From assembly GCA_040954595.2 (NCBI GenBank), contig CM082582.2, positions 4,386,303-4,450,302 of the forward strand: a stretch of DNA of 64,000 nt, read 5' to 3'. A model generated the notes under the pieces. It did not search any database and was not told the DNA's origin. It saw nothing but the letters and a program-made list of their open reading frames with translations. Below, piece by piece: positions 7,392 to 58,195 of this stretch. Both the position numbers and the translations under genes were made by a program. The stretch is from Balanoglossus misakiensis (taxonomy: Eukaryota > Animalia > Hemichordata). Each line of letters starts with the position of its first letter. Within the stretch, counting starts at the first letter, position 1.

Positions 7392-9209
7392 TTAAAACCA
7401 TCTCAGTATTTTATTAAACTGACTGTATCTAAGCCAATTTCCGAAAAAATTCATCATGGTCCCATGACGAGTATGTCTTGATATGTCACATGCGGAACTA
7501 TCTTCAACTAATTCGGCACACCACAGACAAATCATAGCGACCCCAAAACACCATCTGTTGTATATGAAAACAACCCAGTACCTATGTGGCAAAATTGATT
7601 CATTGGTAATGAATGCCGCTGCGGCATACATTGCGAACCCTAAGTTCATCATATCTGCTAGAGTGAGTCCTGTAGGAACGATAAATCTATACGGTGATTC
7701 GCCTATATGATGCCCTCTCAAGGTCACGGATAATTCGTATCTTCCTTCCCTCCACAGTACAAATGATAAACGATGTGTTACGCCGTTTTCGCTGCTTTGA
7801 ACAAGTTTCAAGTCCAACACCTTTCCTCTAGGGTCGACCAGAACTGCTTTCAGCTCATCATTGCACCCATGAACGCTCTCGCCATCAAAGTTCTTGGCGT
7901 AAACAGTGAATTCTGCTATTTCACGGACTTCCTTCAGGCTTTTCGCGTTTTCGCATCTCAGTGTGGAGGTCGATGGCAATGCAGGTAATGACCAATTAGT
8001 AAAGTCTGCACGATCACTGACACATAATACGTCATAATTTGATTTGAAATCAGACGACATTGACAGAACCTCGTCGGCGTGATTCAACGCGACTTTACCT
8101 TCCAATACTAACTTCACATCTGTCTTAAGACTCATTACATTTTCCACGTGTAATAAAGCCCGTCGTGAACTGTCTTCTGTTTTCCTTAAGCGCCTGATAT
8201 CTCCCTGGATGTCTCTATTCATTCTAAAATATCGCCCTCTCAGATTTGGAAGAAGTTCTGGGGTGTTTGTTCTTGATCTTTCAGACTCCAGATGCTCGTA
8301 CTGTTCATCCAGTGAAACGCCGCACTCTGTCGCCTTTTTAATGCTCTCAGCAGTAACCATCCTTTTGTTGATCAACTGTTTACTTCGATCTTCAAGGTCA
8401 TTATAAACTATCAAAGCGGCTTCTTTTGGCATCTTGAACTTGTGCGACTCGGAGCCGTGCTCATCCTCTCGGCAAATCTCGCAAGTCAACTTTTTACATG
8501 TTTCACAATACTTATCCAAGTCCTTTTCATGATGCACACAGACTGGGTCAGGATTGTGAATCTTTTCAACTAACTGGGCGACAAGTTCACGCGCCGTTTG
8601 ATTTTGCACAGTGAGTTCCTCTACATGTCTTTGCATTTCCGCTAAAAATAATTTCTGTGTCTCCTTGTCCATACTTTCTTTCTTGAGTTTTTCTATATCA
8701 CTCCTCTTTGCACCAAGGCGTATTAATGCATCGCTAATTTCGCACCAAAGATTTTCAAAGGCTGAAGTGTCTATATTCGTATTGATCATGTGTGCCAAGT
8801 AATTTCTGTATAATTTCACTCGGACAATGTCAGCTTCCATACTATGGTCTTTCTTATGTGGTTGTTTGTCCCAACCAGTTCTCGGCTGTTGCAGGTTGCA
8901 AATGTTCCTGAAAAGGACCATAAACACAGTTATATCAAAGTCTGCTGACGTCACCGATTTTGGAGCTTTTGGGTACAGGATTTCCCACTCCTTTCTGCTT
9001 AATACTCGTCTCGTTTTGAGGTCGTTCAGCGTTCGTTTGTGACCCGGGTGAGCCAGACACGCAGCTAGTGTAGACGGTGGATTCATCTGATCGAAAACGG
9101 CTCTCAATGTTTTGTTTCCTCCGTCCGCGATGAGCCGCCATAGCCGAGCGTGGTTCGTCCTTTCAACAGTTGATCTAAGCTCGTCTGTGAGGTCAATAGG
9201 AGTCGCCAT
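7392..9209 (-). CDS. HEPN (DZIP3-like)-B-box-coiled-coil-filamin protein with C-terminal hydrophobic (predicted TM) tail; RING-less TRIM-like, 605 aa
   Basis: Single open exon from ATG 9209 (MATPIDLT). HEPN signature DFDITVFMVLFRNIC...TGWD...ADIVRVKLYRNYLAH; B-box CVHH..YCETCKKLTCEIC..EH; helical coiled coil; filamin-type ...EGRYELSVTLRGHHIGESPY; two hydrophobic stretches near the C terminus. Confidence 0.88.
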   Translation of the reverse strand: MATPIDLTDELRSTVERTNHARLWRLIADGGNKTLRAVFDQMNPPSTLAACLAHPGHKRTLNDLKTRRVLSRKEWEILYPKAPKSVTSADFDITVFMVLFRNICNLQQPRTGWDKQPHKKDHSMEADIVRVKLYRNYLAHMINTNIDTSAFENLWCEISDALIRLGAKRSDIEKLKKESMDKETQKLFLAEMQRHVEELTVQNQTARELVAQLVEKIHNPDPVCVHHEKDLDKYCETCKKLTCEICREDEHGSESHKFKMPKEAALIVYNDLEDRSKQLINKRMVTAESIKKATECGVSLDEQYEHLESERSRTNTPELLPNLRGRYFRMNRDIQGDIRRLRKTEDSSRRALLHVENVMSLKTDVKLVLEGKVALNHADEVLSMSSDFKSNYDVLCVSDRADFTNWSLPALPSTSTLRCENAKSLKEVREIAEFTVYAKNFDGESVHGCNDELKAVLVDPRGKVLDLKLVQSSENGVTHRLSFVLWREGRYELSVTLRGHHIGESPYRFIVPTGLTLADMMNLGFAMYAAAAFITNESILPHRYWVVFIYNRWCFGVAMICLWCAELVEDSSACDISRHTRHGTMMNFFGNWLRYSQFNKILRWF

Positions 9210-10381: not shown

Positions 10382-10869
10382 CATGGTGCAGTGGTGAGCT
10401 GAAAGCAGTTCTGGTCGACCCTAGAGGAAAGGTGTTGGACTTGAAACTTGTTCAAAGCAGCGAAAACGGCGTAACACACCGTCTATCATTTGTACTGTGG
10501 AGGGAAGGAAGACACGAATTATCCGTGACTCTGAGAGGGCATCATATAGGCGAATCACCGTATAGATTTATCGTTCCTACAGGACAAACTGTAGCAGATA
10601 AAGTGAACCTGTCGTTCGCAACATTTGCAGGAGCAGCATTCCTTACCAGTGAATCAATTACTCCACATAACTGGTATTTTTTCATATGCCACAGAATATG
10701 CTTTGCGGGCCTTATGCTTTGTGTATGGTGTGCCGAATCAGCTGTAGATAGTTCCGCATGTGACATATCAAGACATACTCGTCACGGGACCATAATGACG
10801 TTTTTCGGAACTTGGATTAGATACAGTCAGTTTCACAAATACTGGGGTCATTTTGTGAACAGTCTATAG
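10382..10869 (+). pseudogene. 5'-truncated inverted paralogue of the 3' end (half filamin + TM tail) of the 7392-9209 gene
   Basis: 10395-10584 matches the reverse complement of 7668-7857 with 5 mismatches in 190 nt, then a diverged but open tail to TAG at 10867-10869. No HEPN, B-box or start codon upstream. Confidence 0.85.
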
Positions 10870-12224
10870 TATACCCAAAACCTTGCATCGCTATGCGGAT
10901 CCTGATAGAGATCACTTTTGGCCAATCAGGCACTTTCATTACTAGGCCCAATCACACATCGAGTTTACCCTCTCAATGACAATGTAGCAATTTGTGCTTA
11001 TGTTATTACGTCCGTCTCATGTTCTTTTACAACTTTTGGAATTTTCCCGTCAGTTGGGTTCTAGCGGTTGAGTTATTACAGCAATAAACGTGCCTTTTGC
11101 ACTTAATGTTGGTCGTGCGTGTCAGACATCATTTAAGGAACCTTGTTCATCTAAAATACCGCAACAGATTTTTATAAATATATATATATATATATGGCGG
11201 AATATTGAAATAGTTTTCTAAGCTTTCTTGGAAAAAGTCGATAAATTAAAAGGCCATACAACATAAATCAATGATATATATATATGCTTAATTAAAGATT
11301 GTATTTTTGGACGATTCAGACATCGTCAGAGTCGAGCTACGAAGTTGGGTTATTTAAACATTTGTGCAATCACCAGGAAACATTAGTGATGATTGTGAAT
11401 TCAAAATAAGTTCTCTCGTCATACAACCTAGTGTAAAGGCGACCGTTACTGTCTATCCCAAACAACAGGTCAATTTTGGATTATTCATAGGTTGATGTTT
11501 TGAACTTGAGCCGCACTCCCCCCCCCCGTATGAAAATAGGGGGAGTACCCCCGGGTGTATCGGCTACGAATGACCCTGGAATGTCAGGTCAGAGTCTATT
11601 TTGTCAATCAACAATCTGTGTGCCCTGTTTAACTAAGTTGTAGCCTGGGTGCTTGCGCCGATCGGTCGATCATACAACGGATATGATCGTCATTTGATGG
11701 AAACCAGGACTGGTATGTAATATCTCTGAAACCTGATCATTAGTACTCAAAACTAGGCGAGGCACAGAACTATTTCAACAGACCTACCACAATGCATATT
11801 TCATCATATCCGGGTGTTATCAAGTCTGTCGCAGCGGTGTCATTCAGACTTTGGTCTTTGAATCCAGATCATGCAAAAGATATCGATCAACTTGTTGGTA
11901 ATATGGTAAGCTCATTTTAATGGGGCGTTGGAGACGGCATGCACAATGTTAGTAATATCATGATTGCACCATTACACAGATGTATAATTAACTTTTGTTT
12001 TCATTTTTGTCATTCCTTATATTCAGTTCGTTGATTTAGCTAAGTCGTGTTGATGTTATGAATCACGTTGTTGTTAAACCACCTGTTGGAATGTCCTACT
12101 GCAGACAGACAGTGTACTTGACTGTCCAGGCCCCGTCCAGGGTCGGTCTGTTTGAACCTGTCAAGAAAATTACCTATATGTGTTGTCACTATCTTTACTG
12201 CAGGCTGTCGACTTTTGAAACAAT

Positions 12225-14597
12225 ATGGCGTCAAACTTTGACCTGTCCGAACCCCTGGCAACGACAACTGAGAAGACAAACCATGACCGTCTCTGCAGAC
12301 TTGTCAAGGAAGGGGGCACCATAGCGCTTAAGGCCTTATTTGATCGTGTCAACCCACCAAAGCAACTGGCCACCAATCTAGCAGATCCCAACGTGAAGAC
12401 GATTCTACAGAGTGTTCTACGACGGAAACTGATCACACAGAAGCAACATATGATTCTATACCCAACTCCTTTGAGCGCGGTCAGTTCAGGTAACTTTGAT
12501 ATAACTCTATTGATGGTTCTACTCAGAAATATGTGCAATCTGAAGCAACCGAAAACAGGATGGGATAACCTTCCCCGACCTAGTGATGTCTCTATCGAGG
12601 CCGATATTTGCCGAATTAAGTTCTATCGCAACAAACTGTGTCACGGACAAACAGCGAGCGTCAGTAACAGTCATTTTAACGGTTACTGGGGTGATATATG
12701 CAGCGCACTCGTACGTTTGGGAGCTGACAGACAGGCCATTGACAGATTGAAAACTGATATCATGGACAGCGAATTAGAGCAACGAGAAACGGAGGAAGTG
12801 CTTGACAGGGCCAGAGAAGGCATCGCTGTGAAAGATCTGCTTCAGTCCATCTTGAAGTCAATCTTCACGAAGAAAATCGAGGAAATTACGTGCAGCGTTC
12901 ACGAAAATAATCCAATTGAGCTTTACTGCACAGACTGTCAAGTGCCAATTTGCTACACATGTGGACTGGGAAAACACAAAGAGTCCAAAGATCACGTTCT
13001 CATGGACTTGAAGGACGCCGCCCATAACTACAAAGACACCATTCTCATCGAATATGACGAGGAACTTAAAACGAAAGAGGCCGAAGTTGCCGAAAACATC
13101 GTCATCGCCAGAAAAAGCTACGACTCCCTCGAAGAAAACTTGACCGTTCAGACAAAGAAACTTGATAACCTGTCTGAATGCGAGGAAGTGAAGAAACATG
13201 AACTTCGAGAACAGCTTATCTCGCAATACAAGTCCTTGAGAGATGAAATGAAGACTGAAGTAGACAGATTCAGTAACCTTGCCCAAACCTTTAAACATAC
13301 GCGTGCTTTCATTAAGAGTCTTCTGCAAATTGAAAGCGAAGCTAAATTGATGTCTGAAAGCACTGTTCTAACGCAACAAATCAATGAAACTTTGCGTTTG
13401 GAAACCGAGATGGAAAAGAATTATGACGTCATCGGTGAAATCAGTTTGTCACCAACGCCCTCCATGTCTCTGCCTGCCCTGCCGTCGTTGACTTTCCTGG
13501 ATACATTTGATGTTCCTAAGCATATTGACGCCGGGGACACCATAACAATGGACATGGTGGCTTTAAATATTGACTGCGAAAAGGTCACAGACAGCGAACA
13601 CTTCGAAGCGGCGGTAGTCTATGGCGATAATCGGAGTGAGAGATTAGAGATAGTTTCGTCAGACGGCATTGAAGAAACTCATTTTATCTCTTTCACCGCA
13701 AGCAAATCCGGTAAACAAGAAATATCTGTGAAGTTGCGTGGAAATCATATTAAGGGATCACCTTTACAGATAGACGTGTTACCGACTTTGAAATTGTCCC
13801 GTATTCCTTGCAGACAATACGCACAACCAGATGGAGCGAAATTCGCCTGCAGTTTAACAACGGATAACCATGGCAACTTGGTGCTGGGAGACAAAACCTT
13901 GGGGCGGATACAGATAATCGAGAAAGATGGGCGTGAGAAAGGAAATTTCACAGTGTCGCTGGGAGTTGGATCATTCACTCCACAGGCTGTGGCGGTCTCT
14001 GAAGATGACGAGTTATTTTGCGTCAACCGCGGAAACAGAGCAGCTCCAGTAGTGGTGTGCGATGTGCGCGGGGCCGTCGTGCGGACATTTGGTCAGAACA
14101 AACTGAAGGGATATGCCACTGGCATCGCTATCGATAAATCCCGAGGCATTGTCTATGTGGGCGACGACGGAGCTTCAACCATACACGCGTTTCTAACCAG
14201 AGATGGCAGCTTTGTGAAATCGTTCGGTCACGTGACATTTCCAACTTCCATCTCTGTTAACAGCGCTGGTGACGTCATCGTTACCGACAGCAAGGAATCT
14301 AACGTCCAGGTGTTCAATTCGGACTGCGAGTTCCTCTTTGCCTTCGGTTATTTTGGCGTCAATGAAGGGGAATTTTGTCTTCCGGTTGGCTTGGCAGTCG
14401 ACAGGTTCGACAACATGTACATATGCGATACGGGCAACCATCGGGTACAGATGTTTGATCGAGAAGGAAAATTTCTCAAATTCTGCATCAAAATCGGAGT
14501 GCAGTATCCAGAATACATTGCGATATCAGATAACCGCGTTTTTGTCACGGATTCAGAAGACAAGTTCTCGGTAAAATATCTACACAACGAAGTATAG
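12225..14597 (+). CDS. HEPN (DZIP3-like)-B-box-coiled-coil-filamin-NHL protein; RING-less TRIM-NHL-like, 790 aa
   Basis: Single open exon. HEPN NFDITLLMVLLRNMC...TGWD...ADICRIKFYRNKLCH; B-box CSVH..LYCTDCQVPICYTC..KH; coiled coil; filamin ...GKQEISVKLRGNHIKGSP; NHL repeats (e.g. GEFCLPVGLAVDRFDNMYICDTGNHRVQMFD). Likely 5'UTR splice acceptor at 12202. Confidence 0.92.
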   Translation: MASNFDLSEPLATTTEKTNHDRLCRLVKEGGTIALKALFDRVNPPKQLATNLADPNVKTILQSVLRRKLITQKQHMILYPTPLSAVSSGNFDITLLMVLLRNMCNLKQPKTGWDNLPRPSDVSIEADICRIKFYRNKLCHGQTASVSNSHFNGYWGDICSALVRLGADRQAIDRLKTDIMDSELEQRETEEVLDRAREGIAVKDLLQSILKSIFTKKIEEITCSVHENNPIELYCTDCQVPICYTCGLGKHKESKDHVLMDLKDAAHNYKDTILIEYDEELKTKEAEVAENIVIARKSYDSLEENLTVQTKKLDNLSECEEVKKHELREQLISQYKSLRDEMKTEVDRFSNLAQTFKHTRAFIKSLLQIESEAKLMSESTVLTQQINETLRLETEMEKNYDVIGEISLSPTPSMSLPALPSLTFLDTFDVPKHIDAGDTITMDMVALNIDCEKVTDSEHFEAAVVYGDNRSERLEIVSSDGIEETHFISFTASKSGKQEISVKLRGNHIKGSPLQIDVLPTLKLSRIPCRQYAQPDGAKFACSLTTDNHGNLVLGDKTLGRIQIIEKDGREKGNFTVSLGVGSFTPQAVAVSEDDELFCVNRGNRAAPVVVCDVRGAVVRTFGQNKLKGYATGIAIDKSRGIVYVGDDGASTIHAFLTRDGSFVKSFGHVTFPTSISVNSAGDVIVTDSKESNVQVFNSDCEFLFAFGYFGVNEGEFCLPVGLAVDRFDNMYICDTGNHRVQMFDREGKFLKFCIKIGVQYPEYIAISDNRVFVTDSEDKFSVKYLHNEV

Positions 14598-15118: not shown

Positions 15119-17006
15119 ATGAATGGGTATGTATGAAAACGACTTGTATTAATTTTAAATATTTTGCCATCCAGAAACACAGAATTTCATACTTCTCAAT
15201 TTAGTATCATTCTATTTGATATCTATTAACACTGGGAACATTGATTTGGTAACTCGTTTTTCTCTTACTGTAATTTCCATGAGTTTGACTAAATATGTCT
15301 GTTATATACTCCAGTTTGGAAAATGGTCTACTAGTTTTCGGTCGAGTGGATTCTCGAATCACACCTGATTATCATAATATCGAATGGATTATACATGTAC
15401 TAACTTCTCTGATATGAATACATGCTAAAACTGAGTGTTTTCATTCTCTATTTTGCTCTGTGTTTTTCTCATAAAGGAAAAGTCTCAATCTCGGTAATAA
15501 TATCAACTGCAGGAACCTGTTTGTTTATCTTAGTGTAGTGACTGTTGTCACTTTCACAGTGTACATTTCTCAAATGAAAATACCTAGTAGGAGGGCGCCG
15601 CCAGCGTTTAGAGTCATGCAGGTACGTAGTGAGCGAAAAGCAATATGGCGGTCGAGTTGGCCGGGCGACACCTTCGGCCAATCGAAAAGTGACCGGGCCA
15701 TCTTTACATGACGTTCAGCGTTCACTGATTAAGAATCACAGCTGTAATACCCACACATCAGTCCACGTCATCACATTTTATATTTACTAATTGCATATCT
15801 CTTTGTCTCGTTCCTTTTGTAAAGTATAAAAGTATTGTTTTATACCATAATATTCTTATGTATATGAATAACTAAATATATTTTCTACAGAAAGTTGGAA
15901 AGGGCGGAGTGTCTATTGGGGATAATAAATTGTCAAACCAGATTGCGAGAATAGAAAAAGAGGAAGATGACAAGAAAGCCAAAAATTCAAACAGTGGCCA
16001 ATTGAATGAAAGTACGTTAACTCGCAATGATTCTCACAAAACTATGAATCTTGTGAAGAAAATAAGTCCAGACTCCAAAATAAACGGGAAAAGTACCACA
16101 TCTATGGCGTCGAGTACTGCCAACTGTAACGAGGTGAAGAATTATCCGGACGATTTTAAAAGTGGTAAAAAATGGCCCTCTCGGTCGAGTGTGGTCATGC
16201 CTGTCTATACATACGGAGGGGGGCCAAGCAATTTCTACAACATGTATAGATGGATGGTGAAATTCGCTATAGCTCATAGGGTTGGTGTTGCCCTTCCTTA
16301 CTTCAAGACGCACGGTACACAAGAGATGGGATCGAGAGGGCTTCGGATGTTCGCGGACACATTTGACGTCGAAAAGTTGAAAGAACTAATGCCTGTGATG
16401 TCCATCGAAGAATTTCGCGACCAGTGCAACGGTGTTATACAGGAGGGAAACCTGGTAGCTCCTGTAAAGCGACCAATGACTGAAATATGTTCTATTTATC
16501 ATAAGGCAGGGGGTTTCAACACGTGCAGCCTTCCTCTCGGTCTGGGCGCTAAGGCCAAATTTATAAGTGACCAAGACGATTACATCATATTGCCTGAGGT
16601 CCGCACTAACTATGAAGCTTTCGTAGACAGCCTAGAAAAGCAAACGGCTTCGGAGAAAAGGCACCTCGCTTTCTACTGCAAAGATCTCAACTACACATGT
16701 AACGTAGAAGTGGAATTCCTTCTCGATGAATACTTCATACGTGCGCCGTACATTCGCCAGATGGGCGAAGAGGCTGCTGGGAAGCTTTGCCGTGGCAACT
16801 ACGCAGTGATGCATTGGAGGAACAAGAGCGCGGAGGGGTTGTCAGGGTAAGTATGTGATGATCCGGGGGTGTAGTCGTATTTTCATTCAAGGGGGTGTGG
16901 CCATTGTTCAAAACATCAATCCATATACACTCCAAAAGTGGCCCACAGTCAGTCAGTCAGTCAGTCAGTCAGTCAGTCAGTCTGTCTGTCTGTCTGTCTG
17001 TATGTA

Positions 17007-50439: not shown

Positions 50440-54374
<3,935 letters not shown>

Positions 54375-56079: not shown

Positions 56080-58195
56080 TTATAAAGTTTCAACATTATC
56101 GGTAGCGGGAGTGTTCCTCTTATTGGAAACTACAGCACTGTCTCGCGGTTTCTCTCTACATTTTCTGGCGATTTTGACCGCGCCAAAAGCCAAAAACAGC
56201 AGTGCACCCTGTAGAGAATTTAATGTGGCCGAAATGTAACTGATTTCCTCTGCTTCCAGAACTATGTCAATCAGGGTAATGCTCCACGTCAGCCCCATCA
56301 AAATAAACGCCTTGGCACACATGACAAAGTGTCGCTTCCAAATGGCGCGCTTGCCGAGTTTGGCAGCGTTGGCCGACGAGCTGATGACGAACCACATGGT
56401 CAACGCGAAACAGCCTGCGTTGAAAACAAACGTCGCGGCCACAGGGCCGACGAAAAACACGAGCAGAGCCTGCTTGTTGCGAATCCAGCATATGTCGTCT
56501 CTGCCATAGCCAAGCTCGTATCCCCCCACCCCGCTGACATCCAAAAACACTGCAGTGCCCACCAGGGGCAGTGGTAATAACCACCCGGTCAGGCAGTACA
56601 CCACAAAAAGGCGCCGACCTTGACTGACGTACAGCGCCTGCTTGACAGATTGGAACGTGCGGAAAATGTCAAAACTCACAACTGACAGCCAAGTGAAATT
56701 TGCGGACCAAGCATAGTGCAAAAACACGGCTATGTAGAAGCACAAACTTGGTAGTTCATTCAGAATCATGCTTGAGAGAAGGGCTGACTGAGAAATCAAC
56801 ATGGAAACGACCATATTGACCATCAGTTTCCCGGGCATATTATGCATGGATTTGTTCAAACGGTAGACGGCAAGAAACGCAATTAGGCAGACGATAGACA
56901 AGGCGGAGAACACTACGGTCAACCACGAGAGTATGGCAGAGGGGCTTCCATTCAGGGGCAAACAGACTAGAGCAAAGGAATTATTACCGATGATTTTAAA
57001 GAATTTTGTCGCAGTGGTAATATTGAAAATTTGGAAAATAAGAATTTCGTTGTCCAGGTGGAAATCTCCGCGGCTTAAAATTAGCGGGCTTGCAGCTTTC
57101 GGACACTGGATAGAACTGTTTTCAAGTCCGTTTTCACTGTGGTTTAGGTGACCGGCAGGGACAACCGCTCTTCGCTCTCCCGTCAGGCCCACACAACCTT
57201 TCAGTGAGAGGTCATAGACTTGGTTTTCGGAACATGAAATTTCGCTAGTAAAGTTGACGGAAAAAGCGTTGTCCGATTCACCAGCAACACTCAGCCATGG
57301 CGTGCCACGCCTGCTGAGGTCAAACAACAAATGTAGCGAATATATCTTTCTGCCTATCGTCGGAAAGGGCTTCTTACCGCACAAGTCTGACGTCACAGAG
57401 ACACCATTGCACAAAGCACAATTTACATTCCCGTACAATAGTTTTCCCTGACTGTGGACTATGGTAATGGGGGAATAGTATGATTGGCATACACGTTGCA
57501 TTTCATTAAATTCCTCTTTTCTTTCGGATTCGTAGAGTGACGAGTTGCATGAGTCAACATACGGACTACACGATCTAACAGTTCCTCCAGTAATTTCTGC
57601 CATCGCCACGTCGGCATCGTCTGACGTTAGATCAGAGATCTCGACAATTTTCATATAGTTTGCGAATGTTTCGTTGAAGCTACCCAGCCTATGAGCGAAA
57701 GACTTAGTGAACATTACCATTACGTGCCACATCACAATTTCTGAGCTGTTTCGTCCGTTGCATATCGCACAGTATATGTTGCGATAGAATTCGGACTCTG
57801 CTGGCCACGTGACTGGTGTCGTCACAATCGATAGACCTGGAATGGAGTAAAGGAAGAACAATTTCAAGAATTTCTTTCCGTTTAGTGGTTTTTGGTTAAA
57901 TGTGTAAGTTAAGTTAAGTGCACCGTTCCCAGAATATTCATAGTAGACCTGCCCACAGCTGGGACATAAACAGATATGGGTCTAGCATGAGAGAGGCTCT
58001 ATTATGGATGGAAGGAGAGGGAGAGAGGGAGGGAGCGGTTGAAGACGGGGGGGGGGGCAGAGAGGATTGGAAAGAGAGGAGAAGAGTGGGACGGGAGAGG
58101 GAGTCTGATAGGAGGGAAACAGGAGAGGGCAAGGGAAAGGGGATAAATCTCGATAGCGATTGAGAAAGAGAAAGAGAGAGAGATTGTGAGAGAGG

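Follow-up and report, generated by a model that had tools for sequence, protein, structure and literature searches.

HEPN-TRIM-NHL is a real and conserved protein design which, judged from sequence and predicted structure, represents a recurrent swap of a predicted nuclease for the ligase on the TRIM scaffold. One such protein, P0001, is encoded by a single open reading frame of 790 codons at 12225-14597 on the forward strand of the 64-kb stretch of DNA analysed here (the window). The frame has no internal stop, and the window contains no undetermined bases (N). The features of P0001 and of two neighbouring loci are as follows.

12225..14597, + strand: HEPN-TRIM-NHL gene P0001, 790 aa, one coding exon
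12252..12782, + strand: DZIP3/hRUL138-type HEPN domain in the RING position, residues ~10-186 (PF18738 E 1.5e-48; model pLDDT 93.5)
12627..12644, + strand: predicted HEPN catalytic motif R135-x4-H140 (alignment with 82 relatives)
12879..12995, + strand: B-box 2 zinc finger, residues 219-257, 8/8 Cys/His present (PF00643 E 7.4e-10)
13008..13394, + strand: TRIM-type coiled-coil region, residues 262-390 (predicted helices 262-314, 321-367 and 372-390)
13482..13781, + strand: filamin Ig domain, residues ~420-519 (PF00630 E 6.9e-6; Foldseek)
13788..14588, + strand: six-bladed NHL propeller, residues 522-788, with a neutral, paralogue-variable top face (AF2 model, Foldseek, slot counts)
7392..9209, - strand: paralogue P0002, 605 aa, HEPN (Rx4H intact), B-box, coiled coil and filamin, with a ~90-aa tail instead of NHL (Pfam)
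10385..10869, + strand: inverted partial copy of the P0002 3' end (end of filamin plus tail) without a HEPN of its own (87% identity over 464 nt)

The earlier note had read this frame as intact, with the order HEPN, B-box, coiled coil, filamin and NHL propeller, and the absence of internal stops, the Pfam matches, the AF2 model and Foldseek all bear this out. Pfam assigns HEPN_DZIP3 to residues 45-187, zf-B_box to 219-257, Filamin to 450-514 (E 6.9e-6) and NHL with E 7.6e-18; among the 11 Pfam families matching at E up to 0.1, no NTPase (NACHT/STAND) was found. In the full-length AF2 model (35 sequences; mean pLDDT 87, pTM 0.48), the B-box leads into helices spanning 262-367, interrupted at 315-320 in the monomer, and the six-bladed propeller is complete at 522-788. 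The top Foldseek match is the filamin-NHL region of zebrafish LIN41 (6fpt, E 2e-25), and the nearest solved folds to the body are the filamin-NHL or NHL domains of LIN41, TRIM71 and Brat. Solved NHL domains align by sequence mostly at residues 622-779, which agrees with the divergence of the N-terminal blades remarked on in the earlier note.

The succession of B-box 2, coiled coil, C-terminal filamin and six-bladed NHL is shared with class VII TRIM-NHL proteins (TRIM2/3, TRIM71/LIN-41, Brat, Mei-P26), whereas in P0001 the HEPN stands for RING and B-box 1. The N-terminal RING by which class VII TRIM (RBCC) E3 ligases are recognized is absent: Pfam gives no RING match on P0001, and since residues 1-220 contain no CxxC, the protein is regarded as RING-less. 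A RING cannot be supplied by an exon spliced at AG 12202-12203, the sole obvious acceptor upstream of the ATG, because an in-frame TGA (12216-12218) lies between the two.

The HEPN motif, R135-N-K-L-C-H140, fits the pattern Rx4-6H with an asparagine after the arginine (N136), and across 82 aligned relatives the arginine is conserved in 79 and the histidine in 74. The domain scores 164.7 bits against PF18738 (cut-off 27; Atlas features 0.97), and its separate model reaches pLDDT 93.5. When this model was searched with VIA against 48,161 chains, HEPN RNases took the first two places, Csm6 with Z 7.0 (115 aligned, rmsd 4.0) and AbiF with Z 6.1 (151 aligned, rmsd 6.8), although all Z-scores stay below 8, are interspersed with unrelated helical bundles and are modest for a helical domain. 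Foldseek returned no match for the HEPN-only model, and no sequence relative with a solved structure was found. The catalytic arginine and histidine are intact in all 35 HEPN-TRIM-like proteins (near-duplicates counted), spaced by four residues in seven acorn-worm-type proteins and by five in the remaining 28. The P0001 HEPN is likely an RNase and is predicted to be active. For DZIP3-type HEPNs as a whole, the literature searched contains predictions only and no report of RNase activity; a structural similarity of Cas13an HEPN domains to the DZIP3 HEPN is noted in PMC12165695. Outside TRIM proteins, the usual place of a DZIP3 HEPN is the N-terminus of a NACHT/STAND receptor, both among the Pfam-scanned relatives and in the account of PMC9646362.

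Relatives and origins of the fusion

The HEPN-TRIM-NHL architecture is recurrent in acorn worms and expanded in stony corals. A homologue search with whole-length P0001 was dominated by bacterial NHL repeats. With residues 1-300 as the query there were 34 matches, two of which have the full architecture: the RefSeq gene models XP_077996586.1 of Glandiceps talaboti and XP_070546620.1 of Ptychodera flava. These two make it probable that the window itself comes from an acorn worm. The acorn-worm-type proteins are 35-36% identical to one another. A profile search gave 5,160 proteins, and 47 of the 150 listed were Pfam-scanned; three of these are short forms with HEPN and B-box from Glandiceps talaboti or Ptychodera flava, and two are HEPN-filamin-NHL proteins, one of them from the coral Stylophora pistillata. 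When the second HEPN-filamin-NHL protein was used as the query, HEPN was joined to B-box, filamin or NHL in 24 of the 120 proteins listed (183 matches), including Acropora digitifera, Orbicella faveolata and at least 12 proteins of Oculina patagonica, which are spread over four scaffolds and of which at least 10 have an NHL. In RefSeq such proteins carry names like TRIM2-like, TRIM71-like, NHLRC1-like or ncl-1-like.

The number of fusion events was addressed with two trees. For the filamin-NHL tree, 43 proteins were represented by their C-terminal 390 residues, with near-duplicates and truncated rows excluded. The three acorn-worm-type bodies form one clade (98/92), which groups with two HEPN-less Ptychodera TRIM2-like proteins (96/88), separately from the coral clade. 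A single origin, with acorn-worm and coral bodies forced together, is rejected on this tree at AU p 0.0009, a value to be read with the facts that the group was picked after the tree had been seen, that branches are long and that sampling is thin, with no true TRIM2/3/71 orthologues. The first AU test (p 4e-9) was set aside, because it was confounded by HEPN-less rows within the coral clade. On the 75-row HEPN tree, the HEPNs of coral TRIMs nest among non-TRIM HEPNs (support 95), away from those of acorn worms, and a single origin is not rejected (AU p 0.106). It is likely that HEPN was fused to a TRIM body twice, independently.

The N-terminal position is also occupied by other domains. Across the coral clade of the filamin-NHL tree, the N-terminal domain has been gained or lost at least six times, and the RING-bearing bodies P0398 and P0416 are nested inside the clade. 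PNP domains are known as immune effectors in other systems. In P0318, a RefSeq isoform model from Acropora palmata, a PNP/UDP phosphorylase precedes a B-box-filamin-NHL body that has no HEPN and is identical at 527 of 571 positions (92%) to the body of the HEPN-bearing P0314 of A. digitifera; this single isoform model is possibly a recent effector swap, or a gene-model fusion of two genes. Ten coral-like rows of 588-611 aa that have neither HEPN nor RING come mostly from unannotated contigs, and as an upstream exon may be missing, they were not counted as natural effector-less forms. An interchange of N-terminal domains on near-identical bodies is seen in the Acropora records.

Some further arrangements were recorded among the relatives. 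In P0123 (Glandiceps talaboti) the B-box and coiled-coil unit is tandemly duplicated between HEPN and filamin. In P0281 a DZIP3-type HEPN shares the chain with a kinase and with a Ribonuc_2-5A domain of the RNase L/Ire1 type, so that HEPN-like RNases of two kinds are combined, and DZIP3-HEPNs are fused with Tudor domains in P0134 and with an eIF4G/eIF5 W2 domain in P0164.

The top face of the NHL propeller

In the structure of LIN41 with RNA, 14 contact residues are named (PMC5908797), and 13 of them occupy four slots per blade: both sides of the repeat proline and two positions after the conserved aspartate. The resulting 24 slots were mapped by hand, from the repeat motif and the blade order in the 6fpt alignment, rather than by superposition or computed surface potential, and one of them is imperfectly aligned in the coral rows. 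Over these slots LIN41 has +9/-1 and P0001 +3/-3, with four aromatic slots in P0001. The top-face charge, which the earlier note had singled out for checking, is thus neutral by slot count, neither LIN41-like basic nor acidic. Only two of the eight basic LIN41 contacts (R564, R581, R611, K628, R676, R707, R752 and R770; zebrafish numbering) are basic in P0001, one of the eight in the Glandiceps protein and none in that of Ptychodera, so that the basic top-face pocket which marks LIN41/TRIM71-type RNA-binding NHL domains, and in which P0001 differs from class VII proteins of this type, is missing. Net charges of +5 or more occur in only two of 19 HEPN-TRIM-NHL rows, the coral P0323 and P0328.

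The same slots are the least conserved part of the proteins compared. Among 10 Oculina paralogues, identity is 0.86 in the HEPN, 0.60 in the bottom loops and 0.17 in the top-face slots; among the three acorn-worm-type proteins, the corresponding values are 0.52, 0.37 and 0.07, and none of 2000 random position sets was as low as the top-face slots. High HEPN identity combined with low top-face identity suggests that the sensor varies while the effector stays constant. In one coral subclade (seven rows), however, the top-face slots are conserved (0.77 vs 0.73 elsewhere); this argues against a fast arms race there, and because of it the top face behaves as a lineage-specific binding site. As the top faces of non-immune human TRIM-NHL paralogues differ as well (PMC9634614), variability alone is no proof of immunity. 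The top face looks like a putative lineage-specific binding site, unlike the LIN41-type RNA pocket.

The earlier note had proposed that P0001 could join RNA recognition and RNA cleavage in one chain. One half of this stands, namely that a HEPN RNase, probably active, is joined to a TRIM-NHL body in a conserved fusion; the other half, that the NHL recognizes RNA and aims the nuclease, finds no support in the neutral slots, the two retained basic contacts of eight and the two rows of 19 with strong positive charge. It is unlikely that P0001 is a self-targeting RNase whose top face would bind a specific RNA sequence or structure and present it to a HEPN dimer. The nearest solved folds are indeed the RNA-binding domains of LIN41, TRIM71 and Brat, the four aromatic slots and the strongly basic P0323 and P0328 would suit such a function, and NHL domains have evolved several unrelated modes of RNA binding with which acidic patches are compatible (PMC5908797): the modelled surfaces of Mei-P26 and Wech carry acidic patches according to the same source, and Mei-P26 is described as an RNA binder. 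Against this stand the charge difference from LIN41, the 7% identity that leaves no conserved surface among the acorn-worm-type proteins and the grouping of the body with Ptychodera TRIM2-like proteins, the NHLs of human TRIM2/3 being judged in PMC9634614 unlikely to bind RNA in the manner of Brat. Binding of RNA in another mode is possible for the P0001 NHL, charge alone being indecisive; a protein or glycan ligand, which the earlier note had named as the alternative, fits the evidence better.

A proposed mechanism and its rivals

We give an even chance to the reading that a TRIM-NHL protein with HEPN replacing RING is an innate-immune sensor which binds a target other than RNA, and whose predicted RNase would fire upon clustering. 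In the proposed scheme, antiparallel dimerization through the coiled coil would keep two HEPNs apart. The NHL top face would bind a repetitive ligand, e.g., a viral capsid, a microbial surface or an aggregate. Clustering, possibly helped by the B-box, would then allow HEPNs of neighbouring dimers to pair into a composite active site, and the RNase would cleave nearby RNA (tRNA, rRNA, mRNA or viral RNA), leading to a translation block or cell death.

The geometry of this proposal is borrowed from known TRIMs. HEPN RNases are reported to require two juxtaposed motifs (bioRxiv 10.64898/2025.12.03.690598; PMC13017515), and in the antiparallel rod of TRIM21 the RINGs lie at least 150 A apart and are paired by target clustering (bioRxiv 10.1101/2020.07.28.225359). 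Since a HEPN needs a juxtaposed pair and the TRIM rod would separate the N-termini, a nuclease at the RING position would stay off until a multivalent target brought several copies together. The main helices of P0001 span 106 residues, ~160 A if straight; because the helix is interrupted at 315-320 in the monomer model, whose pTM is 0.48, the canonical antiparallel rod was taken from knowledge of the family. The proposed logic resembles that of TRIM21 and TRIM5-alpha, in which the copies of an N-terminal enzyme that requires dimerization are kept apart by an antiparallel rod until clustering on the target turns the enzyme on. The output of these proteins is ubiquitination and their sensor PRYSPRY, whereas RNA cleavage (proposed) and NHL would take these roles in HEPN-TRIM-NHL. 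A second parallel is RAZR, a bacterial zinc-finger-HEPN antiphage RNase described as being activated by clustering through assembly on a multivalent viral structure, with its specificity set by the most variable domain (PMC13017515); its HEPN family (DUF4145) and scaffold are different, and the parallel is one of analogy only.

Other HEPN proteins share parts of the design. RNase L senses 2-5A through ankyrin repeats, and neither it nor DZIP3 is known to have a B-box, filamin or NHL. RNase L is described as a dimerization-activated HEPN-type immune RNase (PMC13017515), and human DZIP3/hRUL138 combines the HEPN family found in P0001 with a RING (table in PMC3710099). The HEPN-NLRs of corals, bivalves and amphioxus (DZIP3-type HEPN with NACHT and LRR, TPR or WD40) have the same N-terminal Pfam HEPN family with an intact motif, and a C-terminal repeat sensor and lineage-specific expansion are seen in both groups; they use an NTPase switch and LRRs where P0001 has the TRIM B-box and coiled coil with filamin-NHL. 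Reports of HEPN-NLRs cover pearl oyster, amphioxus, corals and Aplysia, and their RNase activity is likewise no more than a prediction (sources including PMC9646362). HEPN-TRIM-NHL is a member of none of three groups, the RING-type TRIM ligases, the LIN41-type RNA readers and the HEPN-NLRs, and borrows parts of each. In the literature searched, which did not extend to most subscription papers, figures and the pearl-oyster architecture tables, no description of HEPN-TRIM proteins was found. The eLife 2021 paper on TRADD-N, in the parts consulted, treats HEPN, B-box and propellers as alternative TRADD-N modules and not as a HEPN-TRIM fusion, and no such fusion was found in 12 of its 13 supplements.

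A broader reading is offered tentatively, as somewhat short of even odds. In marine invertebrates the TRIM rod may be a plug-in platform for killing enzymes, on which a HEPN RNase (in Acropora, a nucleoside phosphorylase) would have replaced RING independently in acorn worms and stony corals. The outcome would be RNases that clustering activates and whose NHL sensors have diversified, comparable to RAZR but in animals, and to HEPN-NLRs but on a TRIM scaffold. TRIMs are known for ubiquitin ligation or for the regulation of RNA, and a nuclease effector, if true, would be a new output of TRIM clustering. It would also add an arm to the innate immunity of invertebrates, reef corals included, where the family has expanded under misleading names. 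With the compact single-exon P0001 one could ask directly if the DZIP3-type HEPNs so abundant in animals are real RNases.

It is doubtful, and decidedly so, that the HEPN serves mainly as a docking or RNA-binding module that would pair with HEPNs on NLR-type receptors or on further HEPN proteins, with the TRIM as adaptor or co-sensor and any nuclease formed as a heterodimer. The nesting of coral TRIM HEPNs among those of non-TRIM proteins, the paralogue HEPN identity of 0.86, as expected of a shared interface, and a second, NHL-less HEPN-TRIM (P0002) lying head-to-head in the window would all be in keeping with such pairing, but the catalytic residues retained in 35 of 35 proteins would be unneeded in a pure adaptor. 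We regard as very unlikely a housekeeping or developmental role with no part in defence, in which the protein would be an RNase for host transcripts, constitutive or controlled by a signal, comparable to the RING-less TRIM-NHL regulators. TRIM-NHL proteins do act as developmental RNA regulators, as described in the sources consulted, and two acorn-worm genera share the architecture; the acorn-worm-type proteins are, however, just 35-36% identical, and multi-copy scaffolds in Oculina, truncated paralogues, at least six N-terminal changes in the coral clade and the PNP variant are typical of conflict genes. That P0001 is an unexpressed retro-copy or a decaying duplicate is barely credible, for although it has a single coding exon and a gene fragment 1.4 kb upstream, its 790 codons are open, the B-box ligands and HEPN motif are intact, the propeller is complete and RefSeq gene models of the same design exist in two related species.

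Neighbouring loci in the window

The paralogue P0002 is divergently oriented with respect to P0001, head-to-head, and the two are 32% identical over 543 columns. Its tail of ~90 aa is rich in Cys, Trp and Phe and moderately hydrophobic; a transmembrane reading of the tail is weak, the hydropathy maxima being only 1.3-1.6. On the HEPN tree, the P0002 domain clusters with P0157 and P0159 of Ptychodera, and the NHL-less lineage that P0002 represents may be old.

The locus at 10385-10869 is likely a gene fragment; it matches 7404-7867 in inverted orientation and lies between P0002 and P0001, 1.4 kb upstream of the latter. Compared with P0002, its filamin part has four synonymous and one non-synonymous change over 62 codons (dN/dS 0.07), and its tail 11 synonymous and 39 non-synonymous over 86 codons (dN/dS 0.9). 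Gene conversion may explain this contrast, as may a C-terminal module that changes fast, the numbers being small.

When the 64-kb window was searched by tblastn with 11 proteins, only the three loci at 7.4-14.6 kb were found, and no further HEPN or TRIM pieces. The window is gene-sparse animal DNA. A 324-codon open frame at 15876-16850 (+) has a weak O-fucosyltransferase match (E 0.0045), a segment or exon of a Cys-loop ligand-gated ion channel lies at 52096-53169 (+), and a long single-exon segment of a secretin-family (7tm_2) GPCR at 56080-57981 (-). Simple-repeat tracts at 3.6-4.3 kb, 17.3-17.8 kb and 22.0-22.5 kb give rise to spurious low-complexity ORFs.
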